From Alphaproteobacteria bacterium (GTDB taxonomy: Bacteria; Pseudomonadota; Alphaproteobacteria; Bin95), in contig JAJECZ010000212.1 of NCBI GenBank assembly GCA_022821735.1, positions 1 through 43,802 on the forward strand: a DNA stretch of 43,802 nucleotides. The letters run 5' to 3'. Made by a program: the position numbers and the translations under genes. This document shows, piece after piece, positions 22,900-43,636 of the stretch; position 1 is the first letter of the stretch, and each line of letters starts with the position of its first letter. The notes beneath the pieces are model-generated. The model did no database searches and was not told the DNA's origin. It saw nothing but the letters and a program-made list of their open reading frames with translations.

Positions 22900-22912
22900 G
22901 TGGAGGGCCGCC

Positions 22913-23272: not shown

Positions 23273-23286
23273 GCGCCAGGAAAGAG

Positions 23287-23967
23287 ATGCTGGAGCTTTC
23301 CGATGTCCGCAAGACGTTCCGGCGGGGGCCGGTCGAGGTAAAGGTCCTGAGGGGAGTCGACCTCCGCGTGGAGGCGGGCGACCTCATCTCGATCATGGGG
23401 CCGTCCGGCAGCGGCAAGTCCACGCTCATGAACATACTGGGCCTGCTGGGGCGCCAGACAAGCGGCATCTACCGGTTGAACGGCCGCGACGTCTCGACCA
23501 TGGACGACCGCGAACTCTCGGCGTTCCGCAACCGGCATATCGGTTTCGTGTTCCAGTCGTTCAATTTGCTGGGGCATCTGACGGCGCTGGAGAACGCGGC
23601 CCTGCCGCTTGTCTATCGCGGCCTCGGACGGCGGGACGTGCGCCGGCGCGCGCAAGGCATCCTGGAGAAGGTCGGCATGGGCGACCGGCTGGATCACAGG
23701 CCTGACCAGCTGTCGGGCGGCCAGAAGCAGCGGGTGGCGATTGCACGGGCGCTCGTGGGCGAGCCGGGAGTGGTACTGGCCGACGAACCGACCGGAGCGC
23801 TCGACTCCGACACGGCCGACGAGGTGATGCGGCTCCTGGTCCGGCTCAACCGGGATGAGGGTGTCGCGGTGGTCATCATCACGCACGCTCCTTCGGTATC
23901 CCGGCAATGCTGCCGGCAGACCCTGATCCGGGACGGCGCATTGCTGGAAGACGGCGACACGGCATGA
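23287..23967 (+). CDS. ABC transporter ATP-binding protein, MacB/LolD type (exporter 1)
   Basis: Walker A (GPSGSGKST), Q-loop, signature (LSGGQKQRVAIARAL) and Walker B (VLADEPTGALD). Confidence 0.95.
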   Translation: MLELSDVRKTFRRGPVEVKVLRGVDLRVEAGDLISIMGPSGSGKSTLMNILGLLGRQTSGIYRLNGRDVSTMDDRELSAFRNRHIGFVFQSFNLLGHLTALENAALPLVYRGLGRRDVRRRAQGILEKVGMGDRLDHRPDQLSGGQKQRVAIARALVGEPGVVLADEPTGALDSDTADEVMRLLVRLNRDEGVAVVIITHAPSVSRQCCRQTLIRDGALLEDGDTA

Positions 23968-25163
23968 GACACACCAGTCCCGCACTCATGGACAGCCTGC
24001 GCGAGGCCTTGCGGAGCCTCTTGCGGGCCCGGCTGCGCACCGTGCTCGGCCTCATCGGCATCGCCATCGGCATCGCTTCGGTGATCGCCATGGTCTCGAT
24101 AGGCGAGGTCGCCACCGCCGAGGCCCGCAAACAATTCGAGGCCCTCGGCACCGATATCGTCACAGTCAAGACGGCGAAGGACTACAGGGGCCCCGGGATT
24201 GCCTTGGAGGCCGCGCTGTCGCTGACGGACTCGCTGTCCGCCATCTCCGCGGCATCGCCGACCATTCTTGGCGGAACCAACTTCGTTCATGCCGGCCGGC
24301 GCGTGGGCACCGGCTCCGTCAAGGGGGTCAGAGCGTCCTATGCGGACCTCGTGAAGCTCGAAATCGCGGAGGGGCGGTTCGTGTCGGACCTCGACGCCGG
24401 AAGCCTGTGGTGCGTGGTCGGCGCGAACGTTGCCGCAGCCATTCGCCGGGCCGGAACGCTCGACCCACTAAGCGCCGAGCTTGAGGTTGACGGACGCTTC
24501 TACCGGGTCGCCGGCGTGCTGCGAAACCGTGAGGAAACCCATGGCCTTCCCTTCGAAGTGGACGCAGACAAATCCGTGTTCGTCCCGGCTGTCACGGCCT
24601 GGCGCGCCACGCCGAATCCGGAGGTCGGAACGATCATCGCCCGCGCCGCGCCCGGCATCCACCATGAAGATGCGGTGCGCGCGATCAAGACCTGGTTCAA
24701 TGAGCGGCAGCCGGAACTCAAGCTGGAGGTAAGAAGCGCCAAGCAGCTGATCGCACAGATGGAAAACCAGCTGGGCCTGATGGCCATGCTGTTGGGTGCG
24801 GTCGGCAGCATCAGCCTCGTCGTCGGCGGTATCGGTGTCATGAACATCATGCTGATTTCGGTCGCGGAACGTCGGCGCGAAATCGGTGTCCGCCGGGCGC
24901 TCGGCGCCAGCCGGATCGACATAAGGCGTCAATTCCTGGTCGAGTCGGTCATTCTGACGCTCGTCGGCGGCAGTTTCGGCTTTGTCATCGGCAGCGTCGC
25001 CACCTGGGGCATCTGCGAGTTCACAGACTGGGACTTCTTCGTTTCACCGCTCTCGGTGGTCGTCGGGCTCGTCATCTCGTCGGCCGTGGGTATCTTCTTC
25101 GGCATCCAGCCCGCCTACCAGGCCTCCCGTCTCGATCCCATCGTGGCATTGCAGGGAGAATGA
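23964..25163 (+). CDS. ABC transporter permease, MacB/FtsX type with a large periplasmic domain (exporter 1)
   Basis: The ATG at 23964 overlaps the ATPase stop (ATGA). It has TM1, a ~220-aa periplasmic domain, then an FtsX 3-TM bundle (..GGIGVMNIMLISVAERRREIGVRRALGA..; C-terminal ..PAYQASRLDPIVALQGE). Confidence 0.9.
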   Translation: MRHTSPALMDSLREALRSLLRARLRTVLGLIGIAIGIASVIAMVSIGEVATAEARKQFEALGTDIVTVKTAKDYRGPGIALEAALSLTDSLSAISAASPTILGGTNFVHAGRRVGTGSVKGVRASYADLVKLEIAEGRFVSDLDAGSLWCVVGANVAAAIRRAGTLDPLSAELEVDGRFYRVAGVLRNREETHGLPFEVDADKSVFVPAVTAWRATPNPEVGTIIARAAPGIHHEDAVRAIKTWFNERQPELKLEVRSAKQLIAQMENQLGLMAMLLGAVGSISLVVGGIGVMNIMLISVAERRREIGVRRALGASRIDIRRQFLVESVILTLVGGSFGFVIGSVATWGICEFTDWDFFVSPLSVVVGLVISSAVGIFFGIQPAYQASRLDPIVALQGE

Positions 25164-26077: not shown

Positions 26078-29000
26078 CTAGAAATGGGCTTTGGCGAGAG
26101 CAACAGCATCGAGTCCGATCTGCGCCCCGATGAGCCGTCCCGGGATGTCGTCCGCCGGCGGGTGGATGCCGCCCCATATGCGCGACAGGCTGCACTGGTC
26201 GGCGGCGTCGCGATAGGTCGCCCATTGCAGCACCATGTCCACTGATGGCCCACGCTCGAAGACCAGGAACCCGTTCGCCGGGATCCGGAACTCACTCATG
26301 CCGCCGGGAAAGAACGGGTCGCCGGTAAGCGCCGTCAGCACCTCCGCCGCAGCCCGAGAATAAGTGGAATGACCCGAGACATAGCCCGCGAAGGGCGGGG
26401 TGACGAACGTGGGCCGCTGGTAGGGCCACCAGTGTTCCGCGAGAATCCAGCCGACACCGGCCGCGTCGGTCGCCGGGTCGGCTACGTGGTCGGGCCCGCG
26501 CCAGGCCCGTATCTTGATCTTGCCCGCATGCGCACCGTCCTCGCCCGCGAGAGGGTCGTCCGGGCCGACCAGCTCGATCAGGCCGGCCGTTAACGGGATG
26601 CCGTCGGCGGACCATGAAGGAAGCGCGGGATCGCTGGACTGTCCCTGGTCCGCCATGAACCTGATTGCCGAGATCGGCCGGACATAGTCATACCAACCCT
26701 TGACCCCCCATGAAGCGATGGCGGCGTCGTGCATCGCTCCGCCCAGGGCGAAGTATGTCTTCACGTCCCATTCGAGCGGATCGAGAACGGGCCCCTCCCC
26801 CCCGAGCCGCCTGACCAGCTTCTCGTGGTCGCTGACCGCATTCAGGATCGCGTACCAGTGGCCGGGCGGGGTCTCGGAGTCGGGTCCGTCGGCCCAGAAC
26901 TCGGCGAGCGCGCGCGCATAGTCGCCGCGCGGCACGACCTGGGGCACGTAGGGCTCGCCCGTGGCGGGATTGACCCGGTGACCCGGACCGTGCGGGTTCC
27001 CGTCGTAGAAGGAAGGATAATCCTCGACCCTGCGCGGCAGAGCGGAGATGTTGCCGATGCCCGAAGGCGCGATGTCCATCAGCACGCCGTCCGCAGGCGA
27101 AAGCTCGGACGACCACCGGGCAACCAGCGAGAAGCCCCACCTGTAGTGTCCGGACAGGGAATCTCTCGAGAATGGCGGCGGGCCGGGATCGTGGTAGACG
27201 TACCAGTCGGCCCCGTCCCTGCGATAGACTGAAAGGTCTTTCCCTGACAGCGCGAAGGGCAGGACCCGGCCCCACTCGGGAGTAACGAAGACGGAAATGT
27301 TGTCCGCTGCGAATCCCGCCTGGTCCACGAAGCTCGCCAGATGGAGGGGTTGCCAGCGGTCGGGATCCGCGAGGTCCGGATTGCCCGGACGCGACGGCTT
27401 CAGCTTCCTGTTGACAGGCTCGTAGTGGAGGCTTGCGTAGTTGTTCGCCTCGTTGGAGCCGTCCTCAAACCCCCGGGCGATGTAGAGCGCGCCGATGCAG
27501 GCGCCCAACGCCGCCGCGGGCCCGCTGTTGCCGGCGTCGTATCCAAGCGCTGCCATGAGCGTATCGGCGTTGCGCAGGGTTGCGGACGCCCCCGGCGAAT
27601 GCCGGAAGCGGTGCCGGATGAGGCGCCACGCAGCATGGCTGATGGCTTCCCGTCGCGCGGCAGGGATGCCATCGGCAGACGGAACCGGCGTCGGCTCGCA
27701 GACGGGGTCGGGGTCGCCGAACAGGTAGGGCCTCGCCGTTCCGGAATACGAGGCCCAGGCGTCGTACATGGCGGCGGACAGATGAAACAGGTTTCGGGCA
27801 TGGACCGTCGGCCGCGAGAGATCGTCGCGGATCGCCTGCAACAGTACCTCGATCCAGCGCCGCGCGACCGAGATACCGGGGTCCGACAGTGCCGGCCCCG
27901 GCAGGAAGTTGGCAAAGATCGTCGCGTCGTTCGCCGGCATGACGAATGTCGTGCGGGGCGAGCGATCGTCGGCAAATGTCCCGCCGCCCTCGCTGCTCCA
28001 GTGGCTGAAGCGATAGTTGTCTGCAGGTGCGCCGGCCTCGACGGAGACCGTTTCCCCTTCGGCATGGAGACCGCCTTCAGCGCCGCCCGCAACGCTGAGC
28101 ACGGAGCCGCGGTGCGGCGGCTGACGGATGCTGAGACGACGGTCGGCCAGGATGTTCTCCAGCCGGCTGACCTCACCGCCCGGGCCGGGCCACATCACCT
28201 CCACCGCGGATACCGTTTGCTCCCGGCCGAGGCCGAAGTGCAACGTCGCAGGCCCCTGGGACAGGTAGCCGTCGCCAAACCGAACCTCTTGCGTCTGGCT
28301 GCCTGACGGAGTGTGGACGACCACGCGGGCGCCGATCGCCTCCGGGTTGGCATGCCGGCCGACGAGGTCGAGGGCGAGCCAGTGATTGCCGGTCTCGAAG
28401 GCGTTGCGATAGACGGTCGGAGCGGCGCCCAGATTGGCGATGAAGATGTCGACCCTGCCATCGCCATCGTAGTCCGTGCAGACGACGCCCCGGCCCTGGC
28501 CGGTGTGATCGATACCGAGTTCGCTTCCGCGTTCCGAGAAGGTGCCGTCTCCGTTCGACATGAACAGGCGCGACCTGTCCTCGAGAAATTCGAGCACGCT
28601 CTCCCTGTCTTCAGCTTCGCTGGGATCGTTGTCCACATTCCACCCGTTGGTATGAAAGAGATCGAGGTGGCCGTCATTGTCGAAATCCGCCCAGCAGGCG
28701 CCCCAGCCCCAGCCGCCCTCGCGAACGCCGGCGGCCTCGGTTGCATCCTCGAACCTGCCCGTCCCGTCGATGTTCCGATAGAGGCGGTTCCCGGTGGTTC
28801 CCTGGCCGCCGCTCTTGTCCGGGTCGAAGATGCTGGTCACGAACCAGTCGATATCGCCGTCCCGGTCGTAGTCGCCGGCCGAGGCGCCCATGCCGTTCTC
28901 GTCGGTCAGTACTGTCTTCCCCGTTTCGACGAAGGCGATACCGCGGTCGTTGCGCAGAATCTGGCTCGTCCCGAAGTCGCCGGCCAGCAGCAGATCGGGA

Positions 29001-29770
29001 TCGCCGTCTCCATCGATATCGGCGAATGTCGGCGTGAAGGCGTAGTGGAACGGCGTGCCCGACCTGCGGGTTTCCCGGGCATGCATGAGGATTTCGCTCA
29101 CGTCCCGATAGCGTCCCCTGCCGTCGTTTCGCCAGAGAAGGTGCGAGGGAGGGCGCACCCGGTTCGGAATTCTGCTCCAATGTGAAAAGAACAGGTCCAG
29201 GTCGCCGTCGCTGTCGTAGTCCGCCGCCGCCATGGAGTAGGCCGCCTGGTTGTGCCGGATACCGGAAATGCCGGGCGCCGTCGCGAACCGCCCTGTTCCG
29301 TCGTTGCGGAAGACCTGGACGCCGGTCTGCTGAAGCGACACGAAATCCTTCCGGCCGTCGCGGTCGAGATCGATGAAATACCCCGCCCAATCCATGTCCG
29401 CAGGTTCGATGCCGCGATTGCCGTCACGCTCCACGAAGCCGGTGCCGTCATAGCTGAACAGACGGCCCGTCTTGCCGACTCCATGGGCGACGTAGAGATC
29501 GAGCTTGCCGTCATTGTCGATGTCGGAGAGCGACAGGCCGGCAGCCTCGGGTTGTGCGCCGGCTTCCTCCAACAGTCTCCCCGAGCCGGGCACCACCGGG
29601 TAGTCGAGGCCGATCGCGGCCGAGACCTCCACGAAGCCGCGCCCTCGATATACCGCGTCTTCAGCCGACACCTCGTTCCAACCCGCAACGAACAGAAGGG
29701 CAAGGAAGAAGCGACACGACAGGCGTGCGCCACGGCGCGGACCCGCGTTTCCCTGTCGTGCCGCCTTCAT
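26078..29770 (-). CDS. Secreted multidomain protein: FG-GAP/VCBS repeats plus UnbV/ASPIC, an InlB-B-repeat-like domain, and a C-terminal vanadium-haloperoxidase/PAP2-like domain
   Basis: Signal peptide (..FFLALLFVAGWNEVSA). Many D.D.DGD.D FG-GAP repeats. ASPIC motif (GDGYLSQGPATLHFGLG....V..VEVMWPG). Repeat domain (..YRFSHWSSEGGGTF...TTFVMPANDATIFANF). PAP2/haloperoxidase motifs (YDYVRPISAIRF; YVSGHSTYS; SRIWGGIHPPADD). Confidence 0.85.
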   Translation of the reverse strand: MKAARQGNAGPRRGARLSCRFFLALLFVAGWNEVSAEDAVYRGRGFVEVSAAIGLDYPVVPGSGRLLEEAGAQPEAAGLSLSDIDNDGKLDLYVAHGVGKTGRLFSYDGTGFVERDGNRGIEPADMDWAGYFIDLDRDGRKDFVSLQQTGVQVFRNDGTGRFATAPGISGIRHNQAAYSMAAADYDSDGDLDLFFSHWSRIPNRVRPPSHLLWRNDGRGRYRDVSEILMHARETRRSGTPFHYAFTPTFADIDGDGDPDLLLAGDFGTSQILRNDRGIAFVETGKTVLTDENGMGASAGDYDRDGDIDWFVTSIFDPDKSGGQGTTGNRLYRNIDGTGRFEDATEAAGVREGGWGWGACWADFDNDGHLDLFHTNGWNVDNDPSEAEDRESVLEFLEDRSRLFMSNGDGTFSERGSELGIDHTGQGRGVVCTDYDGDGRVDIFIANLGAAPTVYRNAFETGNHWLALDLVGRHANPEAIGARVVVHTPSGSQTQEVRFGDGYLSQGPATLHFGLGREQTVSAVEVMWPGPGGEVSRLENILADRRLSIRQPPHRGSVLSVAGGAEGGLHAEGETVSVEAGAPADNYRFSHWSSEGGGTFADDRSPRTTFVMPANDATIFANFLPGPALSDPGISVARRWIEVLLQAIRDDLSRPTVHARNLFHLSAAMYDAWASYSGTARPYLFGDPDPVCEPTPVPSADGIPAARREAISHAAWRLIRHRFRHSPGASATLRNADTLMAALGYDAGNSGPAAALGACIGALYIARGFEDGSNEANNYASLHYEPVNRKLKPSRPGNPDLADPDRWQPLHLASFVDQAGFAADNISVFVTPEWGRVLPFALSGKDLSVYRRDGADWYVYHDPGPPPFSRDSLSGHYRWGFSLVARWSSELSPADGVLMDIAPSGIGNISALPRRVEDYPSFYDGNPHGPGHRVNPATGEPYVPQVVPRGDYARALAEFWADGPDSETPPGHWYAILNAVSDHEKLVRRLGGEGPVLDPLEWDVKTYFALGGAMHDAAIASWGVKGWYDYVRPISAIRFMADQGQSSDPALPSWSADGIPLTAGLIELVGPDDPLAGEDGAHAGKIKIRAWRGPDHVADPATDAAGVGWILAEHWWPYQRPTFVTPPFAGYVSGHSTYSRAAAEVLTALTGDPFFPGGMSEFRIPANGFLVFERGPSVDMVLQWATYRDAADQCSLSRIWGGIHPPADDIPGRLIGAQIGLDAVALAKAHF

Positions 29771-30588: not shown

Positions 30589-31173
30589 ATGAAGACACCC
30601 ATCGCATTTCGAACGGTAATCGCCGCTTTGTCGGTCATGTTTTTCACGGCTGCTGCATCGGAGGCCTTGGCAGCATGCGGATCGAGCCAGCGGATGAGCC
30701 ACCGAGATTCCCGCTGCCTCGAGGCGTCGTGGGACAACAATTACTGGCCGCACACGACCACGTATGAGGTAAGAAGCGTTTGTGACCGTTGGGGCAAGGT
30801 TGTCGCGAAAATAGACCTCAAGAGCGCAGCAGACCACACTCTGCATCTGAACAACAGTGATTGGCGACGTGCCGAAGGGTCGTTTCGGGTAAGATGGATT
30901 TACTGCTGCAAGGACATAAGCGACCTCTGCAACACATCGGAAATGAAGACAAATGAGAGTTGTCGCGACGGCTTCGAAGACCGCGATGAAGTCGACGACT
31001 GTACTCTTGACGACGGGACTTCCGGAGCGCGGATCAGGGGCGACCATTGCGTATATAACGCAAGTTGCCTTGACGATGCGTCGCAACCGAACCAGACGTC
31101 GCTCTCCATCCACCGAGCGGACCTGGAGTTCCTGAAAAACTGCAACGGCGTCCTGAAAAGGGATTCCTGCTGA
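30589..31173 (+). CDS. Cysteine-rich secreted or lipo-protein, paralog A (194 aa, 12 Cys)
   Basis: Signal peptide MKTPIAFRTVIAALSVMFFTAAASEALAAC; ends ...NCNGVLKRDSC. GC content is visibly lower than in its surroundings. No family recognised. Confidence 0.8.
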   Translation: MKTPIAFRTVIAALSVMFFTAAASEALAACGSSQRMSHRDSRCLEASWDNNYWPHTTTYEVRSVCDRWGKVVAKIDLKSAADHTLHLNNSDWRRAEGSFRVRWIYCCKDISDLCNTSEMKTNESCRDGFEDRDEVDDCTLDDGTSGARIRGDHCVYNASCLDDASQPNQTSLSIHRADLEFLKNCNGVLKRDSC

Positions 31174-31972: not shown

Positions 31973-32557
31973 ATGAACACGCGCATCGCATTTCGAACGG
32001 TAATCGCCGTTCTGTCGGTCATGTTCCTCACGGCTGCGGCATCGGACGCCTGGGCGGCGTGCGGATCGAGCCAGCGGATGAGCCACCGCGATTCCTTCTG
32101 TCTCCAGGCGTCGTGGGACAACAACAGCTGGCCGCACACGACGTCGTATGAGATGAGAAACATCTGCTCTTCCTGGGGCAAGGTCGTCGCGAAAGTCGAC
32201 AGAAAAGACGATTCGGACCTCACATTGCACCTGGTCAACGACTCCACGAGAACCGGCAGCGGGTGGTACAGGATCAGGTGGATTTACTGTTGCAAGGACA
32301 TAAGCGATCTCTGCAACAGGTCGGACATGCAGACAAACGCGAGCTGTCGCGAAGGCTTCGAGGACAACAACGAACTCGACGACTGCACGCTCGACGCGGG
32401 GTCCGAAGGAGCGAGGATTCAGGGCGAGCAGTGCGTATACAGCGCAAGCTGCCTCGACAATGCGTCGCAACCGAACGAGACGACGTTCATCGTCTTCCGA
32501 CCGGACGTGGACGATTTGAAGAATTGCAACGGCGTCTTGAAACAGGATTCCTGCTGA
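31973..32557 (+). CDS. Cysteine-rich secreted or lipo-protein, paralog B (194 aa, 12 Cys)
   Basis: MNTRIAFRTVIAVLSVMFLTAAASDAWAAC...NCNGVLKQDSC. It is colinear with paralog A and all 12 Cys positions are conserved. Confidence 0.8.
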   Translation: MNTRIAFRTVIAVLSVMFLTAAASDAWAACGSSQRMSHRDSFCLQASWDNNSWPHTTSYEMRNICSSWGKVVAKVDRKDDSDLTLHLVNDSTRTGSGWYRIRWIYCCKDISDLCNRSDMQTNASCREGFEDNNELDDCTLDAGSEGARIQGEQCVYSASCLDNASQPNETTFIVFRPDVDDLKNCNGVLKQDSC

Positions 32558-33121: not shown

Positions 33122-33829
33122 TCAGGAAAGGGCGGCAAGCGCTGCCTCCAGAGTCTCGCGGCAGTCCATGACCGACCGAAAGCCGCTCATGTCGACAACC
33201 GACCGGCATGAGGGCTGCAAGGCAGCGATAACGAACCTGCCGCCCGATTGCTGACATGTCTTCGCGCTGACGAGGAGGCCGCGCAGTCCGGCGCTGTTGA
33301 CATAGCTCATCCGGCTGCAATCCAGCGCCACACGGGCGTTGCCGGCCGCGACGACGGTGGAAACCCGGGCCTCCAGCAGCGGAGCGCCGCTGCCATCCAG
33401 CCGGCCGCTCACCGACAGGACGACCGCAACCTCCTCGCGGCGCTCCTCGATCGTGGTCTCCCCGCCGTCTTCCGGCATCGACTTAACGCCGCCCTCCCCG
33501 GAAGCGGCAAGGGCTGCCTCGACGGTCTCGTGGTAGTCGAGAACCGAGAGCAGACCACTCACGTTCACGACCTCCCGGCACTCCGGCCTGAGCGCAGCAA
33601 TGATGAAGGTGCCGCCCTCGTTCCCGCACGATTTAGCGCCGACCAGGAGCGCGCGCAGACCGGCACTGCTGATATAGGATATTCGCCGGCCGTCCAGAAT
33701 CACACGGTTGTCGCCCCGCCTCACGATAGCGGAAACCCGGGCTTCCAGAACCTGCGCGCCGGCCGCGTTCAGCGGCCCCTCCGGGGACACGACGACTTTC
33801 CGTTCCAGGCTCCGCTCCAGGATTCTCAT
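33122..33829 (-). CDS. Tandem-STAS domain protein (two anti-sigma-factor-antagonist-like domains)
   Basis: Two internal repeats each carry a SpoIIAA-like core: ..VILDGRRISYISSAGLRALLVGAK...FIIAAL.P.CREVVNVSGL.. and ..VALDCSRMSYVNSAGLRGLLVSAK...FVIAALQPSCRSVVDMSGF... The ATG at 33844 is an alternative start. Confidence 0.8.
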   Translation of the reverse strand: MRILERSLERKVVVSPEGPLNAAGAQVLEARVSAIVRRGDNRVILDGRRISYISSAGLRALLVGAKSCGNEGGTFIIAALRPECREVVNVSGLLSVLDYHETVEAALAASGEGGVKSMPEDGGETTIEERREEVAVVLSVSGRLDGSGAPLLEARVSTVVAAGNARVALDCSRMSYVNSAGLRGLLVSAKTCQQSGGRFVIAALQPSCRSVVDMSGFRSVMDCRETLEAALAALS

Positions 33830-33840
33830 GGCGCCGCCTT

Positions 33841-34605
33841 TCATCGGTCACGCCGATTGCCGTCCGCACGCGCCGCGGCGACGAGTTCCTTCATCTGGAT
33901 GTCGTCGATTGCGCCCGGGACCAGGGAATCCCCGATCACGAATGCCGGCGTGCCCGAAATCCCCAGCGCCCCGGCGAGCCGCCTCGTCTCCTCGAGATAG
34001 GCTGCGGTCGCAGGATCGCCCATGTCGCGGCGGAGCCGCTCCACGTCGAGCCCGACCGCGGCGGCGAGCCCGAAAATCCCCTCTTCGGTCAGCTTCTCCC
34101 CGGTACCCATCATGGCGACATGGAAATCGTGATAGAGCCCTTGCCGGTCAGCCGCCATTGCGGCAACTGCGGCCAAGTCCGAGACCGGACCCAGGATGGG
34201 AAACTCCTTCCAGACCACGCGGACCCGGTCGTCGGATTCCAGCAACGCCATCACGGCCGGAAACGCCCGCTTGCAGTAGCTGCATCTGTAGTCGAAGAAC
34301 TCGACCACGGTGACGTCGCCCTCGGGGTTGCCGGAGACCGGCGACAGGGGATGCGCCCGCAGGGCCCGGTCGTTTTCCGCGATCGCCGCCCGGGCGCGGC
34401 TCAGGCGCTCCTCCTCGCGCCTCTGGCGAAGAATCTGCATCGCCTCTTCCAGGACCTCGGGGTTCTCCAGCAGATACTCCCTGACGATCTCTCCGACCGC
34501 CTTCCTGTCGAGATTCGGGTCCGGCGCCGACTGCGCCCGGCTCTCCGGGGCCGGCATCATGATGGAAACGGCGATCACGGCCGCCAGCATCGTCATCATT
34601 CGCAT
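33841..34605 (-). CDS. DsbA-family periplasmic thiol:disulfide oxidoreductase
   Basis: Signal peptide, thioredoxin-fold active site (VVEFFDYRCSYCKR) and the DsbA-like cis-Pro region (ISGTPAFVIG). Confidence 0.9.
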   Translation of the reverse strand: MRMMTMLAAVIAVSIMMPAPESRAQSAPDPNLDRKAVGEIVREYLLENPEVLEEAMQILRQRREEERLSRARAAIAENDRALRAHPLSPVSGNPEGDVTVVEFFDYRCSYCKRAFPAVMALLESDDRVRVVWKEFPILGPVSDLAAVAAMAADRQGLYHDFHVAMMGTGEKLTEEGIFGLAAAVGLDVERLRRDMGDPATAAYLEETRRLAGALGISGTPAFVIGDSLVPGAIDDIQMKELVAAARADGNRRDR

Positions 34606-34785
34606 GGGTCATGTTCCTTGTCTGTGTATGCGTGCGGAGGACTCATCGATCACCCGTAAACCACGGCGCGGACGATCGTCTGTCGAGTTGATTTGCGGGC
34701 CGGATTGGCGCAATTTTCGCTGGACGAAATCCCCGGCCAATGGCGTGGCGACCATATACGGACGGAAAGATCGGAGGGCGCCGGC

Positions 34786-35202
34786 GTGACCTCTTGCAAG
34801 CTCTCGGGAGAAGACGCCGTCGCCTTTGACGCTCCCCTTCTGCTCTATGACGGCGAATGCCCGTTCTGCAGCTTCTACGTCGCGAAATCGGAATTCGAAA
34901 CGCGCATCGGCAAGCCCCTGCGTCTCGTCGACGGCAGGCAGGCCCCCGACCTCGTCGAGCGCATGCGGCGCGACGGGTACGACCTCGAACAGGGCATGAT
35001 CCTCGCCGTCGAGGGACGGCTCTATCACGGCGCAGCGGCGATGACCGCACTCGCGACCATGAGCACCGGCGCCGGCCGCTTCAACAGGGTCATGCGCCGG
35101 GTCGCGTCGAGCCGTGCGCGGGTCCGCCGGCTCTATCCCTGGCTGCGCAGGCTGCGGCGCGCAGCTCTGCTCGCAAAGGGCGCGCCCCGCTTCCGGCGCT
35201 GA
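34786..35202 (+). CDS. DCC-family (DUF393) thiol-disulfide oxidoreductase
   Basis: DxxCxxC motif near the N-terminus (LLLYDGECPFCSFYV). The GTG at 34786, preceded by GGAGG, gives the usual ~138-aa size. The ORF-track start at 34693 is less likely. Confidence 0.8.
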   Translation: MTSCKLSGEDAVAFDAPLLLYDGECPFCSFYVAKSEFETRIGKPLRLVDGRQAPDLVERMRRDGYDLEQGMILAVEGRLYHGAAAMTALATMSTGAGRFNRVMRRVASSRARVRRLYPWLRRLRRAALLAKGAPRFRR

Positions 35203-35216: not shown

Positions 35217-36782
35217 TCATTCCCGATCCTCGCAGGCGACGCCGCTCCGGGAGCCGCCCGAAACAGCCTCGAACCCGGGCGACCGTTCCCGTTTTCCAAA
35301 TGCGTCCAGCATGGCGCCGAAGCAGGCGGACGTCATCGGCGGATACCAGGTAGGGACCAGCCCTTGCGCCGCCTGTACCCGCTCGGGACGGAGCAGCCAG
35401 GGCTCCTCGCCGAACCAGTTCATGCCGTCGATCGCGGCGAGGTCGAAGGTCGGATCCACCAGGCGCTGAAACGGCTTGCCGTTCACGCTCTTCGAGATGT
35501 CGGCGTAAATGCGCACATCATCGATGCCCTGCCGGGCGAAATCCGCCTTCAGCCAATGCACATAGTGCATCAGCACCTCGGGCTTGGTGAACACCATGAA
35601 CTCCTGAAGCGGATCGAGATGGGATCGCGGTTCGACGATCCATGCCTCGCCGTTCGGTGCGGCCACCAGGAAGCTCCCGCCGCCGTCGTTGATGTAGAGC
35701 ATCATGCGCCAGGAGAATTTCTGGCCCTCTTCGGTCCACCCGACATAGCCTTCGAACAGGCTGTCCCGGAAGGGCAGCCAGATTTGGACTAGGGCGTAGA
35801 GGACGAGGGCAGCCAACGCAGCCGGATGCAACGGACGGAAGGCGGCCCGATCGTCTGCGCTTCCCGCCGGCGCGCCGCCGATGAACGCGACCGCGCGGCC
35901 GATCCGGTCCGGCATTCGTGGTCGCACCACCCGCAGCCTCTTCAGCACGAGGCCGGTCCTGCGCGCCAGCGCCCCGGGCCAGTCGGGGGAGAACAGGATC
36001 GTCGTGGCGGCGATCGTCATCCACGGGAAGACGCCGATAGGGAACAGATGCGCGTTGGCGACGTGGAAGGCGCAGTAGACCAGGAATATCCAGAGCCTCG
36101 TCTTCGACCACAGCAGCAACGGCGCCCCCACCACGTGGAGCAGGATGACCAGCACGGGCGCCGCGAGCGTCACCCAGTGCAGCTCGAACAGGACGGAGAA
36201 GGGCGACCAGGTCCGCTCCAGCATCCAGGTCCTGAGCGGCTCGCCCCGCAGCCAGTCGATCTCGAATTTCGCCAGTCCCGCGAAAATCAGCACAACCTCG
36301 ACCTGGAACTGCAGGATGAGGAGGTTCCAGCGCGGTACCTCTCGCGTGCCCCCGATGCGGCCGAGCCTGCGGTCCACCGACCAGCAGCGGTGCGCGTCGG
36401 TACAGCCGAGCAGCAGCCCGAACAGCGCGATCATGTAGAAATGGTTGAGATAGAGCAGCTGATCGAGAAGGAAGAAGTATATGAAAATCGCGTTGAAGCC
36501 CCAGATGGCGAGACGATAGAAGGCGCCGAAGGCGACGAGCACGCAGCACACCCCGCACAGCGCCCACAGCCAGTGCAGCCAGGGTGCCGGCAAAGGCGGC
36601 ACCTCCAGTCCGAAATAGGGAAACAGGATTTCGCGCTCGACATAGAACCGCGTCAGCCATCCGCCTCTCAGCAGATAGACAACGTCGTGCAGCATCACGA
36701 GGCCGAAGGCGATCCGGAAGACGGCAAGCGACTGTCCGGCCACGGGCCGGACGGCCAGCCTGCGAATGTCTGTCAGCATCAT
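35217..36782 (-). CDS. HTTM-domain membrane protein (vitamin-K-dependent gamma-glutamyl carboxylase-like)
   Basis: N-terminal HTTM signature (..GQSLAVFRIAFGLVMLHDVVYLLRGGWLTRFYVE..ILFPYFGLE...YRLAIWGFNAIFIYFFLLDQLLYLNHFYM..L..LL). It has multiple TM segments and a ~200-aa C-terminal domain. It starts 54 nt downstream of the exporter-2 permease on the same strand. Confidence 0.85.
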   Translation of the reverse strand: MMLTDIRRLAVRPVAGQSLAVFRIAFGLVMLHDVVYLLRGGWLTRFYVEREILFPYFGLEVPPLPAPWLHWLWALCGVCCVLVAFGAFYRLAIWGFNAIFIYFFLLDQLLYLNHFYMIALFGLLLGCTDAHRCWSVDRRLGRIGGTREVPRWNLLILQFQVEVVLIFAGLAKFEIDWLRGEPLRTWMLERTWSPFSVLFELHWVTLAAPVLVILLHVVGAPLLLWSKTRLWIFLVYCAFHVANAHLFPIGVFPWMTIAATTILFSPDWPGALARRTGLVLKRLRVVRPRMPDRIGRAVAFIGGAPAGSADDRAAFRPLHPAALAALVLYALVQIWLPFRDSLFEGYVGWTEEGQKFSWRMMLYINDGGGSFLVAAPNGEAWIVEPRSHLDPLQEFMVFTKPEVLMHYVHWLKADFARQGIDDVRIYADISKSVNGKPFQRLVDPTFDLAAIDGMNWFGEEPWLLRPERVQAAQGLVPTWYPPMTSACFGAMLDAFGKRERSPGFEAVSGGSRSGVACEDRE

Positions 36783-36836
36783 GTCTGCCGCTCCGACTTC
36801 GCCCTTGGCCCCGCGTCTCTCACCGGCCGCTCCACC

Positions 36837-38051
36837 CTATTCGCCCTGCAGCGCGATGATGGGATCCAGGCGCGAAGCCTGGTAGGCGGGCTGGAAGCCG
36901 AAGAAGAGGCCGATCGCGGACGAGACGCCGACGCCGGCAGCGATGGATGTCGGCGAGACGAAGAAATCCCACTCGAAGAAGAACCGGCACAGGCCGTAAG
37001 TCGCTCCTGTTCCGATGAGAATGCCGACCACCCCGCCGCCCATGGTGAGGATCAGGGCCTCGACCAGGAACTGGCTCTGGATGTCGCCGGGGCTCGCGCC
37101 GAGGGCCAGCCGAACGCCGATCTCGCGGCGCCGCTCGGCCACCGAAATCAGCATGACGTTCATCACGCCGAGCCCGCCCACGATCAGGCTGATGCTGCCG
37201 ACCGCGCCGAGCAGCAGGGTCATCACGCCCAGCTGTGCCTCCATGCGCTCGATCAGCTGCTCGGCGCTGGTGACCTGGACGGCGAGGCCCCGGGACCGTT
37301 CGGCGAAGAAGGTCTGGATGTCCGCGGCGGCGTCCGCGTAGTGAACGCCGGGCGCAACCCGGGCGACGATCAGTTCGATCTGCGCGTCCGGACTGAGGCG
37401 CCGGACCGTGGTAACGGGAACGAATACGGATTTGTTCGCGTCCACGGAAAACGGCAGCGCATAGCTCTCGGGCGTGTCGGCCAGTACGCCGATCACGGTG
37501 TAGAGCCAGTCTCCGGCCCCCACGATCTCGCCCACGACCTCGCTTGCGCCGAGCCGGCGCATTTTCTGCGCCACCTCGGCGCCCACCACCGCGAAATAGC
37601 GCCCCCTGTCCAGGTCCGAGACGAAGCGCCCCTCGGCGACCTGCAGCCGGTTTACGCGCGCAAACGACTCCGAAACGCCCTGTACGGAGCCGGAACCGGC
37701 GTCCTTGCCGGCATACAGGAAGGAACCGCTTGACCGTATCCTGGGCGCCGCCTCGGCAATGGTCGAAAGCCTGTCGGCAACGTCGAGCGCATCCTCCAGA
37801 CCGATGGCCGCGTCTTGCGCGGCGGCCGGCTGGTCCTCCGACTTGAGGACCGAAAGTATATCGGTCCCGACAGCCTCGAACTTCTTGCGCGCCTCGGCGG
37901 TGGCGATTTCCCCGGTCGAGATCATCGCGATCACCGACGCGATGCCCATCGCGATGCCGACCAGCCCCAGGATCGTGCGGAGCCTTGCACGCAGGAGGCT
38001 GCGCGCGGCCTCGCGCAGGCTGTCGGTCAATGCGGCTCCCCCGCGCGCCAT
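36837..38051 (-). CDS. ABC transporter permease, MacB/FtsX type (exporter 2)
   Basis: Colinear with the 23964 permease (MARGGAALTDSLREAARSLLRARLRTILG...PAYQASRLDPIIALQGE). The ATG at 38051 is preferred over the longer ORF. Confidence 0.9.
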   Translation of the reverse strand: MARGGAALTDSLREAARSLLRARLRTILGLVGIAMGIASVIAMISTGEIATAEARKKFEAVGTDILSVLKSEDQPAAAQDAAIGLEDALDVADRLSTIAEAAPRIRSSGSFLYAGKDAGSGSVQGVSESFARVNRLQVAEGRFVSDLDRGRYFAVVGAEVAQKMRRLGASEVVGEIVGAGDWLYTVIGVLADTPESYALPFSVDANKSVFVPVTTVRRLSPDAQIELIVARVAPGVHYADAAADIQTFFAERSRGLAVQVTSAEQLIERMEAQLGVMTLLLGAVGSISLIVGGLGVMNVMLISVAERRREIGVRLALGASPGDIQSQFLVEALILTMGGGVVGILIGTGATYGLCRFFFEWDFFVSPTSIAAGVGVSSAIGLFFGFQPAYQASRLDPIIALQGE

Positions 38052-38062: not shown

Positions 38063-38743
<681 letters not shown>

Positions 38744-38758: not shown

Positions 38759-40531
38759 TCAGTATTCCGGCACCGCGATTTCGTCGCCGGCCTCCAGGCC
38801 TGCAACGATCTCGACGGAACTCATCGTGGTCAGACCGATTTCGACTTCGCGCTCGACCGTTTCGCCGGTGCCCGGATCGACAATCTGCACCCAGTGCGAC
38901 CGCCCGCGACGGTCCACCGCCGCCAGCGGCACCGTGAGCGCCTCCTCGTTGCGGTAGACGACGATCTCCAGCCTGCTGGACATCCCGGCGCGCAGCCGCC
39001 GCTGTTGTGCGTCGTCGAGCGGATCGAGCGTCACCCTGACGGCGAAACGGGACGCTCTCCCCGTCTGTTGCACCGGCTGCGACGAGACCTGGGTCACGGT
39101 CCCCTTCAGCATCAGGTCGCGAAAGGCGTTCCCGGTTACCGATACGGCCTGCCCGACGGCGATCCGGACCACGTCGACTTCGTCCACCTTCGCGGTTGCC
39201 GCCATCCGGGTGAAGTCTCCGATGGTGAGCAGATGGTCGCCCTTACGTACGGCCCGGCCTGCCGCCAGGGCCGGGCCGCGCGACGAGGACGCCATGACCA
39301 CCCCCGACAGCGGTGCATGGATACGCCCCTTGTCGAGGTCTTCCGCCAGCTCCCGCAATGTTTCCTCGGCAGTGCTGAGTTCCAGCGCCGCCTTGTCCTG
39401 CGCCTCCTTGCCGCCCCTGGCCCGGGCCGCCTCGAAGTCTTCGCGGGCTGCCTCGAAATCCAGAAGCTGGCTCTGGTACCGCCGTTCCGCATCCTCGCGC
39501 TCGGAGGTGGCGACCAGGCCCTGTTCCAGCAGGAACGCGGTCCGCTTCAGCTGCCTCTCCTGATCCTCCAGTTCCATGCGCGCACGCGCGAACGACCGCC
39601 TGGCAGCCGCCATCTCGGAGCCGGTCTCCCAGTTTGTGACGGTTTCGAACGCATCCGCCTTTTCGATGTGGGCCACTTGCGCCTCGCGGTGCTTTTGCAC
39701 CGCTTCGGAGGTATCCAGTTCCATCAGGAGACCGCCCTCCTGCACCGCCTGGCCGTGCTCGAAATGCACGGCTTCGATGCGGCTCTCGATCGGACTCGTC
39801 ACCGCAACCGTCCGCCATGGCGCCAGCTTGCCCGACAGCGTGATCGTCTCGCTTACCGGCTGCGGCCCCACGGTCACCGTGTAATGGCCTTCTTCGAGCC
39901 CGGCCCTGGCAGGGGAGACAACGGACTGATCGAGCGAGCCCTCAAAGAGATCGAGCGGCTGCCACACATAGGCGCCGGCGCCCAGGAACGTCCCGATCAC
40001 AACCACCGTCGCGACGATCCGCGCCACCTGGACCTGTCTCAGGGTCGCCGCCAGGGTCCGGTTGCGGTCCTCGATCTGCCGGTACGCCGACTGAAGCTCG
40101 GCGTGCTGCGCCTCCACTGCCTTCGCCATCCGCAGTTCGGTCTCGCGCAGCTCCTTGAGCTCGGTGATGTCGCTGAAGACGGCGATCAGCGCCATCGGCG
40201 CCGACTCGCCGTCCGCGCCCGACCGAAGATAGGATGTCGCTACCGAGAGCGACCGGGCTTCCCCGCCTCTCTCCAGCGCCACCACCCGCCGGCCGCCGTC
40301 GCTCTCCCCGGTCACGGCGTCGAGGATCAGCCCGCTCAGCTCTTCGAAGCCGTCGCGGTCGATGAAGAGTTGGGCGAAGGACCCGCCCACGGCCTCGTCC
40401 GGCGCGAGCCCGAGGATGCGTCCCGCCGCCTCGTTGAACACCGAAACGGTGCCGCCGCGCTCGACCACGATCACGCCGTCGGACAGGTTCTCCAGAACGC
40501 TCCCGCGTATATCGGCGAACCCGCCCGTCAT
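38759..40531 (-). CDS. Membrane-fusion protein with an N-terminal cytoplasmic PAS domain (exporter 2)
   Basis: The ATG at 40531 overlaps the OMF stop (ATGA). MTGGFADIRGSVLENLSDGVIVVERGGTVSVFNEAAGRILGL...IAVFSDITELKELRETELRM, then a TM segment (IVATVVVIGTFLGAGAYVW) and the adaptor domains. The 945-aa ORF extension overlaps the OMF gene and is rejected. Confidence 0.85.
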   Translation of the reverse strand: MTGGFADIRGSVLENLSDGVIVVERGGTVSVFNEAAGRILGLAPDEAVGGSFAQLFIDRDGFEELSGLILDAVTGESDGGRRVVALERGGEARSLSVATSYLRSGADGESAPMALIAVFSDITELKELRETELRMAKAVEAQHAELQSAYRQIEDRNRTLAATLRQVQVARIVATVVVIGTFLGAGAYVWQPLDLFEGSLDQSVVSPARAGLEEGHYTVTVGPQPVSETITLSGKLAPWRTVAVTSPIESRIEAVHFEHGQAVQEGGLLMELDTSEAVQKHREAQVAHIEKADAFETVTNWETGSEMAAARRSFARARMELEDQERQLKRTAFLLEQGLVATSEREDAERRYQSQLLDFEAAREDFEAARARGGKEAQDKAALELSTAEETLRELAEDLDKGRIHAPLSGVVMASSSRGPALAAGRAVRKGDHLLTIGDFTRMAATAKVDEVDVVRIAVGQAVSVTGNAFRDLMLKGTVTQVSSQPVQQTGRASRFAVRVTLDPLDDAQQRRLRAGMSSRLEIVVYRNEEALTVPLAAVDRRGRSHWVQIVDPGTGETVEREVEIGLTTMSSVEIVAGLEAGDEIAVPEY

Positions 40532-41943
40532 TGCCCGACCTGCTCGACCGTTATGCCCCAGGTCTCCAGGGTCGTGCCAAGGGTCCGATCCAGCGCCAGG
40601 AGCGCGTTGTCGTAGCCGGCGAGAGCGTCGACCTCGGCGTTCTGCGCACCGACAAGGTCCTCCTCGAACCGGCTTAGCTGGAAGGTGGACGAGAGACCCT
40701 GCTGCAGCTTGCTCCGCTCGATCGCGAGCTTCTCCTCGGTAAGTTCGCGCGCCCTGCGGGCCAGCTCGATCTGCCGCTGCCCCACCTCTACGTCGTACAC
40801 GGCCTGGCGCACGGCGATGCCCATCGCCTGTCGCAGTTCCTTCAGGCCCCGCTCCGCGCGCCGAACGTCCGCCCGGGCGCTCCTGAGCCCGAGTTCGGGC
40901 GAGCGGTCCCACAGCGGAACGGTCAGCCGCAGGCCGGCGGAATAGTCGATCCCCACATCGCCGCCGGTGCCCCGCGACATGTCCGCATCCAGGGACAGGT
41001 CCCAGAGCTTGCTGTTCTCGGCAACCGTCAGCCCGATCCCGGCGATCTCCCTGACCAGAAGCGCCTGCGCATAGCCGGGCGAGTGCCTGAGCGCCGTCTC
41101 GATGGCCTGCTCGACCGAAAGCGGCCGGCGCGGAACGGACGGCGCCTCGACCGGACGGATCACCGTTGAACTGTCGATGTCGAGAATGTCGATCAGGGAG
41201 AAATTGGCCGAGGTCACGCCGTTCCGGGTCTGCACCAGGCCGAGTTCCCTTCCGGCCACATCCGCCTCGCTCTGGAGCAGTTCGCGGGCCGCCATCTGGC
41301 CCGCCTCGACGAGCTTGCGGTTGATGTCCAGCTGCTCCCGCGCGCGGGCCAGAGAGGCCTCGCCGATCTCGAGCTGGCGCCGCGACTGCACCAGGCCACG
41401 CCAGGCCTGGATCGTGGAAATCACGACGCCCGCGACCGCCTGGCGGAAGGCCAGCACACCGATTCGTTCGCCGATCCGCGCCACCCGCAGCGGCGCCGTA
41501 TCGATGTCCGTCCCGAAGCCGCGCAGCAACGGCTGCGAGAAACCCAGCGAGACCGTGCCCGAAGTGTCCTCCCCGCCGGCAAGCGGCTTCGACCACCGCA
41601 AACTGATCTGCCCCCCGGTGGGAATCCGCAGACCGGTCCCGATGGAAGCATCTGCCGTCATCTGCCCGTCCCTTTGGGCACGCACCGTCGGCGCGATGCT
41701 CCCAATGGGGCTGTAGCGGTCCTCGGCCACCTCGAGCGAGAATTTCTGGATGGCGCGGGAGAGACGGGCGTCGAGCAGGCCCCGGTTGTTCTCCAGCGCC
41801 AGCGCGATCGCGTCATCCAGCGTCAGCGCGAGGCGGCCGGCAGGTACCCCCACCTGGCCCAGTCCCGGCGAAGGCCGCAACACCGTCATCGCCGCTGCCG
41901 GAAGCAGCAGAGCGACTATGGCAACTATGGAAATCCGGGTCAT
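40528..41943 (-). CDS. TolC-family outer-membrane efflux protein (exporter 2)
   Basis: 471 aa with a signal peptide (MTRISIVAIVALLLPAAAMT). It is colinear with the 19754 OMF, at roughly half identity by eye. Confidence 0.9.
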   Translation of the reverse strand: MTRISIVAIVALLLPAAAMTVLRPSPGLGQVGVPAGRLALTLDDAIALALENNRGLLDARLSRAIQKFSLEVAEDRYSPIGSIAPTVRAQRDGQMTADASIGTGLRIPTGGQISLRWSKPLAGGEDTSGTVSLGFSQPLLRGFGTDIDTAPLRVARIGERIGVLAFRQAVAGVVISTIQAWRGLVQSRRQLEIGEASLARAREQLDINRKLVEAGQMAARELLQSEADVAGRELGLVQTRNGVTSANFSLIDILDIDSSTVIRPVEAPSVPRRPLSVEQAIETALRHSPGYAQALLVREIAGIGLTVAENSKLWDLSLDADMSRGTGGDVGIDYSAGLRLTVPLWDRSPELGLRSARADVRRAERGLKELRQAMGIAVRQAVYDVEVGQRQIELARRARELTEEKLAIERSKLQQGLSSTFQLSRFEEDLVGAQNAEVDALAGYDNALLALDRTLGTTLETWGITVEQVGQ

Positions 41944-42797: not shown

Positions 42798-43367
42798 TCA
42801 GCAGGAATTCTTCTGTATTTGCTCATCATTGCACAGGACCAGTTTATCGACCTCGTAGCGAAAAACCACCTTCGTCGCATAGACCATCTCGCCGTCGACG
42901 TTAGGGCAAGTGGCGCTGTAGTGACAGCGTTCCCCGGAAATGCTGACGCCAGAGGAGCTGGAGTTCAGTTGGCAATCGTCGAGATCTTCATTTTCCTCAA
43001 ATCCCTCACGACTACTCGCATTTGTCCTCATGTCCGACTTGTTACAGAGATCGGACAGGTCAGAGAAACAGTGAATCCACCGGACGTTGGAGCGCGTCCT
43101 GCCGCGCCTCTTATTCCCGTCATTCAGGTGCCAAGTCTTGTCGCCTGTATCCTTCAAGTCGATTTTCGCGACAACCTTGCCCCAACCCGGACAAGGGTTT
43201 TGCACGCCGAACGGCGACGGGGAGGGCCATTGATTGTTGTCCCACCACGCCGACAGGCACTCTGCATTTCTGTGGCTGACCCGGTCGCTCGATCCGCAAG
43301 CTGCCCAGGCTTCGGAGCCCACAGCGGTCAGAAACAGAGCGATGATCGCGGCCAAAACATAACGCAT
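42798..43367 (-). CDS. Cysteine-rich secreted or lipo-protein, paralog C (189 aa, 10 Cys)
   Basis: RBS ggaggag; MRYVLAAIIALFLTAVGSEAWAAC...; ends ..IQKNSC. It is colinear with A and B, but two Cys positions are replaced (CC to CF; ESC/ASC to ASS). Confidence 0.75.
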   Translation of the reverse strand: MRYVLAAIIALFLTAVGSEAWAACGSSDRVSHRNAECLSAWWDNNQWPSPSPFGVQNPCPGWGKVVAKIDLKDTGDKTWHLNDGNKRRGRTRSNVRWIHCFSDLSDLCNKSDMRTNASSREGFEENEDLDDCQLNSSSSGVSISGERCHYSATCPNVDGEMVYATKVVFRYEVDKLVLCNDEQIQKNSC

Positions 43368-43636
43368 GGTTTGTCTCCTCCAGCTATCGCCTGCGAGGTT
43401 GTTGACATCTGAACCATGGGCGCGCCCATGGCTGCGGAGAGGATCGGGCCGCTCCTTCAGGAAGAGCTTCCGGTACGCCATGCGGACTTTGAGTACCTGA
43501 ACATGGGCGTCATTGAGCGCATGATGCGCCACATCCGGCACGCCGAACTTCAGGTCCCGATGCACGAAGCCCGTCACATGGCAGATGGTGTGCATCGCCG
43601 ATTTGTTCAGAAAAAGTTGTGAATTGGGACGCCCTT

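Follow-up and report, generated by a model that had tools for sequence, protein, structure and literature searches.

Gamma-glutamyl carboxylase (GGCX) draws on hydroquinone chemistry: a lysine deprotonates the hydroquinone, which then reacts with O2 so that a strong base arises alongside a quinone epoxide (PMC12647623). In human GGCX, clamp A, the clamp B jelly-roll and the C-terminal domain together build the propeptide cleft (PMC12647623). Among bacterial relatives, MloH from malonomycin biosynthesis in Streptomyces is referred to there as an aspartyl carboxylase acting on a small-molecule intermediate (Law et al. 2018, cited in PMC12647623). Fusions of the HTTM membrane domain with a DCC1-like domain exist as well, and the predicted complex of the Firmicutes fusion protein with its DUF5819 partner resembles the whole of GGCX (bioRxiv 10.64898/2026.08.19.745780). 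As regards secretion, the MacAB-TolC pump exports from the periplasm the toxin STII, itself exported by Sec and matured by DsbA (PMC5985334). Here we describe a GGCX-like HTTM gene that follows the genes of a MacB-type pump, named exporter-2, in an alphaproteobacterial island also encoding secreted cysteine-rich (Cys-rich) proteins. The DNA analysed, hereafter the window, is a stretch of 43,802 nucleotides with about 67% G+C (contig JAJECZ010000212.1 of assembly GCA_022821735.1). In full-text literature searches, we met with no account of secreted Cys-rich proteins and a GGCX-like gene sharing a MacB-type exporter island, nor with any HTTM-DCC pairing beyond the fusion protein of the 2026 preprint.

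The HTTM gene, the pump and their nearest partners are arranged as follows.

40528..41943, minus strand: TolC-like outer-membrane factor (OEP).
38759..40531, minus strand: periplasmic MacA/HlyD-like adaptor with an N-terminal PAS domain and one transmembrane helix; its start overlaps the OEP stop (ATGA).
38063..38743, minus strand: ATP-binding cassette (ABC) ATPase of exporter-2.
36837..38051, minus strand: MacB_PCD/FtsX permease of exporter-2, with a probable ATG at 38051 in a reading frame open to 38123.
36783..36836, minus strand: gap of 54 nt between the permease and HTTM genes, with a GGAG ribosome-binding site 8 nt before the HTTM ATG.
35217..36782, minus strand: GGCX-like HTTM gene, 521 aa, ATG start, identified by its open reading frame (ORF), Pfam, phmmer and AlphaFold2/Foldseek.
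34693..35202, plus strand: DCC1-like thioredoxin-fold protein with a CPFC motif (PF04134, E 7.5e-11).
33841..34605, minus strand: periplasmic protein with a signal peptide, ScsC_N and a DsbA-like thioredoxin domain.

The four pump genes and the HTTM gene form a same-strand run with intergenic gaps of -4, 15, 11 and 54 nt. This run ends with the HTTM gene, and the convergent DCC1-like gene comes next, the two stop codons lying 14 nt apart. The initial annotation had described a 521-aa HTTM gene placed 54 nt after the permease on the same strand, last in the operon run and with no intervening terminator, and both coordinates and scans agree with that description. Indeed, these 54 nt separate the end of the permease ORF, at 36837, from the HTTM ATG at 36782; neither a terminator-like nor a sigma-70-like site was detected in the gap, and RNA folding of the gap was no better than that of shuffled sequence (z -0.13). 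No promoter was returned by a sigma-70 scan from 33000 to 38300, and an Rfam scan of the whole window gave no match. The codon-position GC of the HTTM ORF (0.65/0.45/0.84) is that of a typical coding sequence for the window. Strand, short gaps, lack of a terminator and a conserved adjacency to the permease all mark the gene as an accessory member of the MacB exporter operon, and it is presumably cotranscribed with the pump, which probably expels disulfide-rich secreted proteins. A minus-strand ORF at 34609-35220 (203 aa), considered as a continuation of the operon, was rejected in favour of the plus-strand DCC1-like gene because its codon-position GC is atypical and it matches no family.

Two Pfam domains were recognized in the HTTM protein.

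35979..36749, minus strand: HTTM domain, residues 12-268 (PF05090, E 5.3e-68, profile positions 2-259 of 259).
35391..35822, minus strand: VKGC_lumenal_dom, a periplasmic, clamp-A-like domain, residues 321-464 (PF22777, E 3.5e-34).

The suggested HTTM, gamma-carboxylase-like identity is thereby confirmed and extended by a lumenal domain that had at first been missed. In a phmmer search of PDB sequences, human GGCX was the sole match (E 1.6e-39); identity to it is about 25%, and a profile of 69 homologues aligned with human residues 47-510 (E 5e-72). The AlphaFold2 model (predicted local distance difference test, pLDDT, 87.9; predicted template modelling score, pTM, 0.87) retrieved GGCX entries only when compared with the PDB by Foldseek (TMq 0.71-0.74, E down to 4e-21), with 470-514 aligned columns in the top matches. 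The predicted layout consists of about nine transmembrane helices, a cap and the periplasmic clamp-A-like domain. Hydropathy and the positive-inside rule assign the K/R-rich loop 265-313 to the cytoplasm and the last 189 residues to the periplasm, and in the model the active site is predicted to face the periplasm.

The catalytic core is conserved when residue roles are taken from the electron cryo-microscopy study of human GGCX (PMC12647623). The catalytic base Lys218 corresponds to K172 (codon 36267-36269) and Trp223, which stacks on it, to W177; Phe286 and Met401, which sandwich the quinone ring, correspond to F239 and M360, and His287 and Asn290, near the active site, to H240 and N243 (PMC12647623). 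Likewise, Asn159 and His160, which bind the Glu carboxylate, are kept as N113 and H114, and Phe299, which stacks on CO2, is kept as F252 (PMC12647623). All these kept catalytic residues are invariant across the alignment of 69 homologues. Domain content, fold and catalytic core place the HTTM protein in the GGCX family. What is conserved in the core points to a hydroquinone-binding enzyme in which Lys172 would perform the deprotonation, and the retained Asn-His pair and CO2-stacking Phe would allow an acidic side chain to be carboxylated.

SdpB is HTTM-like too, and the protein might instead be an SdpB-like membrane maturation factor for a secreted disulfide toxin, quinone chemistry not necessarily being used. 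The island does encode secreted Cys-rich proteins and an exporter, and in the Bacillus systems the secreted toxins derived from SdpC and YitM are not produced without SdpAB and YitPO (PMC6818787). That the GGCX epoxidase residues are conserved as a full set, along with the lumenal domain, nevertheless argues for catalysis, and an NCBIfam search at E <= 0.01 with the HTTM and DCC proteins matched no family, SdpB and SdpA models included. Membership of SdpB/SdpA was dropped on the strength of this search, and we consider such a role very improbable.

A homology search retrieved about 35 clusters at 63-90% identity, from alphaproteobacterial metagenome-assembled genomes (MAGs) labelled Rhodospirillaceae or Thalassobaculaceae. 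An identity gap separates this close clade from the next relatives, which share at most 45% (Rhodobacterales, Hyphomicrobiales and others). Neighbourhoods were compared in 80 genome loci and two contigs, searched with the window proteins; the 80 loci comprise 12 of the close clade (62-90% identity), 11 of them informative, and 68 of a distant clade at 35-45% identity. Nine of the 11 informative close-clade loci, like the window, have the HTTM gene behind the pump genes and on their strand, in an island containing Cys-rich genes. It directly follows MacB in L006, L007, L008, L010, L011, L013 and L085, the last of which was reached through the Cys-rich domain and shows the same cluster. The order Cys-OEP-adaptor-ABC-MacB-HTTM, followed by convergent DCC and then DsbA-STAS, is shared by the window, L010 and L013. 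L003 and L004 have MacB-DsbA-STAS-HTTM and L006 and L007 have MacB-HTTM, both with convergent DCC, and L002, L008 and L011 show rearranged forms of the island. One MAG chromosome contains three HTTM-DCC copies, two of which lie each inside its own pump island. Pump, ScsC/DsbA, STAS, Cys-rich and FG-GAP/ASPIC/haloperoxidase-like genes accompany the close-clade HTTM only. In L002, a short HTTM fragment (7384-7530, plus strand; 67% identity) stands directly after MacB, ahead of an inserted Cys-rich gene and then the full HTTM gene; it resembles a remnant of an ancestral junction between MacB and HTTM.

The linkage to DCC genes suspected in the initial annotation proved to be general. A DCC1-like gene occurs within 10 kb of HTTM in 67 of the 80 loci and within 1 kb in 65; 64 of these detections lay within 1 kb by tblastn, two were displaced by insertions and one came from a hidden Markov model (HMM). 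In the close clade the DCC gene is convergent and adjoins HTTM downstream; most distant loci have it immediately upstream in divergent orientation, and in six distant loci, of which the named ones belong to Hyphomicrobiales, it lies downstream on the same strand. The CP(F/L/V)C motif is present in all 68 DCC partner sequences (68/68), and the window's DCC1-like protein lacks both a signal peptide and a transmembrane helix. The strongest and oldest partner of HTTM is therefore the DCC1-like CPxC protein, not the pump. A cytoplasmic CPxC partner is best explained as a reductant that would recycle the epoxide or the quinone.

The neighbourhoods also bear on the idea that the HTTM protein is a thiol oxidase of the DsbB/VKOR type, reoxidising the adjacent ScsC/DsbA protein. 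An ScsC/DsbA gene accompanies HTTM-DCC in 8 of the 12 close-clade loci and in the window, and the island has no DsbB or VKOR. Such a function is nonetheless hardly to be expected, for the alignments of 69 HTTM sequences contain no invariant or near-invariant Cys, human Cys99, the disulfide partner of Cys450 (PMC12647623), is replaced by Phe, and the sole CxxC protein, DCC, has no signal peptide or transmembrane helix. Redox-active Cys pairs not being conserved in HTTM, membership of the DsbB/VKOR type was rejected.

The secreted proteins that would be the substrates are encoded by three genes in the window, with a longer relative at the head of a second pump operon.

30589..31173, plus strand: Cys-rich paralog 1, 194 aa, 12 Cys.
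31973..32557, plus strand: Cys-rich paralog 2, tandem duplicate of paralog 1.
42798..43370, minus strand: Cys-rich paralog 3, upstream of exporter-2 on the same strand.
18824..25163, plus strand: exporter-1, consisting of a 305-aa Cys-rich protein, OEP, PAS-adaptor, ABC and MacB.

The three paralogs are of about 190 aa each. All the Cys-rich proteins have a Sec signal peptide with an AxA cleavage site; the Cys found after this site form no consistent lipobox, and there is no propeptide. The family has no Pfam model, and a profile search of 1.84 billion representatives gathered 416 clusters at 50% identity (E <= 1e-3). An alignment of 43 members has nine invariant Cys and three nearly invariant ones, and 12 conserved Cys would fit six disulfides; the other near-invariant residues are Arg35, Leu44, Gly69, Val72 and Asp109, the last within CCxDxSDLC. 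The AlphaFold2 model of paralog 1 (pLDDT 81) is beta-rich and showed no likeness to a Gla domain; Foldseek found no match for it in the PDB below E 0.001. The acidic block (R/E)EGFE..DDC, thought at first to be conserved in these proteins, turned out to be limited to near paralogs: across the 43 members the site corresponds to the family motif aromatic-x-x-S-x-A-x-x-x-C, which is acidic solely in the near paralogs of the window. Another acidic motif, (D/E)D(V/L/I)(D/E)D..x..C, found towards the C-terminus, has a broader distribution.

In paralog 3, two cysteines are missing at once (C107 to F, the second of the CC pair, and C125 to S), which suggests that C107 and C125 may form a disulfide in the other paralogs. 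Paralogs 1 and 2 belong to a tandem duplication (30305-31176 / 31691-32560) with a unit of 1384 bp and 79-86% identity, each copy consisting of the Cys-rich gene preceded by about 280 nt. Sequence upstream of the Cys-rich genes aligns between these two copies alone. The G+C content of the duplicated region (about 58-64%) is below that of the rest of the window, and a transposase fragment adjoins it at 29836-30069. In a metagenomic sequence of about 70% G+C (L092), the 12-Cys domain heads two adjacent Calx-beta proteins of about 800 aa (7189-9618 and 9839-12328, plus strand); this architecture makes the Cys-rich module part of a wider extracellular domain family.

The reading that we favour, if tentatively, connects these elements in a single chain. 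The enzyme would be made from one transcript with the OEP, PAS-adaptor, ABC and MacB components of the pump and would bind a membrane hydroquinone, probably ubiquinol. Lys172 would deprotonate the hydroquinone, and its reaction with O2 would produce a quinone epoxide together with a strongly basic intermediate. The strong base would then modify the Sec-exported 12-Cys proteins while they are folded by the island's ScsC/DsbA protein, the most likely modification being carboxylation of an acidic residue, and the pump would expel the finished proteins across the outer membrane. The cytoplasmic DCC1-like CPFC protein would regenerate the quinone from the epoxide, as VKOR does in animals. Periplasmic modification before export is topologically sensible since MacB-type pumps load from the periplasm, and ubiquinol is the likelier cofactor because the alphaproteobacterial groups concerned have ubiquinone and are not known to have menaquinone. 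The data directly support homology and fold, the retention of catalytic residues, the layout of the operon, the conservation of synteny and the pairing of HTTM with DCC; from these we infer cotranscription, the identity of the cofactor, the epoxidase activity, the role of DCC and, above all, the Cys-rich proteins as substrate and carboxylation as the reaction. We regard the full chain, namely a quinol/O2 epoxidase, periplasmic modification of exported Cys-rich proteins and quinone recycling by DCC, as plausible, short of probable. In its most specific form, that is, a vitamin-K-like cycle in some marine alphaproteobacteria, in which a periplasm-facing ubiquinol epoxidase/carboxylase is paired with a cytoplasmic DCC epoxide reductase and, in this clade, Asp/Glu of secreted six-disulfide proteins are carboxylated before export, the proposal is speculative and, in our estimation, unlikely.

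Several observations weigh against this reading, and the first group concerns the protein itself. Human Asp263, which adjoins the catalytic Lys (PMC12647623), is replaced by H216, a His that is invariant in the family. Tyr395, which anchors the Glu dipeptide (PMC12647623), is Q354 here and His in the distant clade. The substrate contacts Arg406, Arg436 and His440 (PMC12647623) correspond by alignment to N365, Met and Lys, the last two correspondences being less certain than the other mappings. At the Glu/CO2 site, N113, H114 and F252 are thus kept and the equivalents of Tyr395, Arg406 and His440 are not. After the ninth transmembrane helix, the model contains only a three-stranded sheet and helices, as in clamp A; the eight-stranded jelly-roll of clamp B and the C-terminal domain are absent from it, and the alignment stops at human residue 510. 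With respect to the features of the GGCX family, then, Asp263 and the exosite formed by clamp B and the C-terminal domain are lacking and the Glu site is ambiguous. Recognition of a Conus-like or clotting-factor-like kind does not apply, given the missing clamp B and C-terminal domain, the Gln at Tyr395 and substrates devoid of a propeptide; with Tyr395, the Gla-neutralising residues and the propeptide clamp lost, recognition cannot follow the animal pattern. No Glu is conserved across the 43 Cys-rich members. Moreover, the Leptospira orthologue studied by Rishavy and colleagues in 2005 reportedly has epoxidase but no carboxylase activity.

The absence of the propeptide clamp would also suit an enzyme that modifies a lipid or a small molecule, the product being handled by the pump or by the envelope, in the manner of MloH or of the epoxidase-desaturase fusions of giant viruses. 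As far as it is described in the source cited above, MloH is the sole bacterial orthologue with a known substrate, and this is a small molecule. For the viral homologues, lipids are the proposed targets (PMC13486548), and MacB-type pumps also export glycolipids and siderophores. Yet neither the window nor the related islands contain biosynthetic genes, whether for non-ribosomal peptide synthetases or polyketide synthases (NRPS/PKS) or for a desaturase, and the recurring neighbours are secreted proteins and DsbA. On balance, we find this explanation rather improbable.

The second group of adverse observations concerns the neighbourhoods. The link between the HTTM enzyme and the Cys-rich proteins is one of neighbourhood in about a dozen MAG loci, a synteny that makes modification of these proteins possible. 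None of the 68 distant-clade loci has a pump, DsbA or Cys-rich gene near HTTM. When ORFs within 6 kb of HTTM in these loci were clustered, DCC was the sole widely shared neighbour (45/68 by clustering; 56/68 by tblastn and HMM), and within the close clade itself, L005, L012 and L026 have HTTM-DCC without a pump. Pump/Cys-rich loci, for their part, occur without HTTM: exporter-1 has no HTTM, DCC or DsbA copy of its own in the window; L083 and L084, reached via the nearest Cys-rich homologues, have a pump and no HTTM within 10 kb; and among 15 metagenome loci found via the Cys-rich domain and gathered with the GKVVAK pattern, a single one (L085) has HTTM, located at the contig end together with DsbA, two Cys-rich genes and a pump. 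A metagenome scan with the pattern CC[KTS]D[IL]S.LC gave no match. Mirror-tree comparison of HTTM with DCC, MacB, ABC, adaptor and OEP in nine loci, a set that contained one mis-picked adaptor, gave weak and inconsistent correlations (Pearson 0.3-0.6, Spearman -0.04 to 0.56); co-evolution was not used as evidence, and HTTM divergence is untracked by that of the pump.

These neighbourhood data would be expected if HTTM-DCC were a general envelope quinone/redox module doing the same job in all carrier alphaproteobacteria, unrelated to modification of Cys-rich proteins. Its job could be quinol epoxidation with thiol-driven recycling, directed at a common envelope target or at the quinone pool, and its location in the island would reflect co-regulation with oxidative folding and export. 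However, the close clade forms a branch of its own, sharing no more than 45% identity with the rest, and is almost always found in the island, directly behind MacB, and in one genome HTTM has been duplicated along with the islands. Furthermore, four of the 21 positions specific to the pump-linked clade fall within residues 351-361 (hypergeometric P 5e-4), that is, in the loop W349-M361 of the lumenal domain, equivalent to LL9, which corresponds to human residues 390-402 and forms the Glu/substrate pocket in GGCX. Judged from the alignment, such substitutions would fit a specialisation of the pump-linked clade towards a new substrate. A general module is a possibility to be taken seriously, if a doubtful one.

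As for modification of the Cys-rich proteins, the co-occurrence expected by the initial annotation thus holds in the close clade (pump and Cys-rich genes with HTTM in 9/11 loci and the window) and fails in the 68 distant loci. The proposal that HTTM acts on these proteins keeps a linkage that is real, conserved and clade-specific; it loses the target motif and the animal recognition machinery, and DCC emerges as the more general partner.

In the distant neighbourhoods, a secreted subtilase (PF00082) is encoded 1-6 kb from HTTM-DCC in 15 of the 68 loci (L074, at 7194-8519 on the minus strand; L027, L041, L049, L052, L057, L061, L065, L067, L068, L069, L072, L076, L081 and L082). It has two or three poly-Asp tracts (11-22 D/E in 30 aa) right after the signal peptide. 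Genes for an extracytoplasmic function (ECF) sigma factor (16 loci) and a putative anti-sigma factor (14 loci) occur in the same neighbourhoods. The poly-Asp subtilase could be a substrate or a regulon member of the generic HTTM-DCC pair.

Two further genes of the island recur among its relatives.

33122..33844, minus strand: double-STAS protein, anti-sigma-antagonist-like.
26078..29770, minus strand: 1230-aa FG-GAP, ASPIC/UnbV, vanadium-haloperoxidase-like protein.

The double-STAS gene is always paired with the ScsC/DsbA gene in related islands, and its product may serve the ABC ATPase as an accessory subunit, like MlaB, instead of acting as an anti-sigma antagonist. The 1230-aa protein recurs in L002, L005, L008, L011 and L083, in the last of these beside a pump/Cys-rich locus without HTTM. 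The adaptors of both pumps (38759-40531, minus strand; 21124-22899, plus strand) carry a cytoplasmic PAS domain ahead of the single transmembrane helix; this is unusual for the MacA/HlyD type and was seen in all related pumps, including those of L001, L002, L083 and L084. Finally, the plus-strand block at 2632-8364 encodes housekeeping functions (KpsF/GutQ-like SIS-CBS, LptC, LptB-like ABC ATPase, RpoN, hibernation factor, EIIA-Ntr), which places the island beside core chromosomal genes.

Together with about a dozen relatives, this locus represents a candidate system in which an enzyme, its redox partner, DsbA, an exporter and secreted proteins are encoded in one island. For a bacterial member of the GGCX family, it supplies candidate protein substrates open to experiment, and protein carboxylation in bacteria becomes directly testable. 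The HTTM-DCC1 pairing suggests a quinone recycler where no VKOR adjoins the gene, and the DCC1-like family (formerly DUF393) thereby gains a role that can be tested. If the enzyme uses ubiquinol, the cofactor range of GGCX chemistry would be widened. Should carboxylation of the Cys-rich proteins prove true, these would be the first protein substrates of a bacterial GGCX, a counterpart of Gla proteins and Gla-conotoxins.

Compared with human GGCX, the window's protein shares the fold over about 480-510 aligned positions, an active site on the non-cytoplasmic side, and the catalytic Lys, Trp stack, Phe/Met quinone sandwich, Asn-His pair and CO2-stacking Phe. It differs in lacking clamp B and the C-terminal domain (human residues of about 511 to 758), hence the propeptide cleft, as well as the C99-C450 disulfide, and in having Asn at Arg406; its host probably relies on ubiquinone instead of vitamin K, and its partner is a cytoplasmic DCC1-like protein instead of VKOR. 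The Leptospira orthologue of GGCX is also bacterial and, by description, furnished with the lumenal domain. MloH, compared here from its description in the citing paper, is likewise a bacterial enzyme of the family, with proven carboxylase chemistry, and is encoded in a PKS-NRPS cluster, whereas the HTTM gene stands beside an exporter, DsbA and secreted proteins.

In sdpABC and yitPOM of Bacillus subtilis, an HTTM-like membrane protein and a small partner mature a secreted toxin (PMC6818787), as might be imagined for the island; the NCBIfam result gives no sequence-level membership, however, and the partner family is another one. The giant-virus modules of VKOR and carboxylase-like proteins resemble the HTTM-DCC pair in combining a GGCX-like protein with K218 and a thiol-based quinone reductase (PMC13486548). 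Unlike the window's protein, in which the region is present as W349-M361 and its surroundings, the viral proteins lack human residues 374-418, and they are fused or adjacent to desaturases (PMC13486548). Export of STII offers a likeness in that a periplasmic disulfide protein, handled by Sec and DsbA, is expelled by a tripartite pump of the MacB type (PMC5985334). In the island, by contrast, the candidate substrates are of 165-350 aa with six or more disulfides, the adaptor has a cytoplasmic PAS domain, and ScsC/DsbA, STAS, HTTM and DCC genes are added. The Firmicutes fusion, which has a DUF5819 partner, joins HTTM to a DCC1-like domain in one chain (bioRxiv 10.64898/2026.08.19.745780), whereas in the window the two are encoded by separate genes, HTTM carries the lumenal part itself, and both belong to an exporter island. 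To our knowledge, SdpB is without a VKGC lumenal domain. Set beside these systems, the HTTM gene is a truncated orthologue of GGCX with a new set of partners and a new genomic context.

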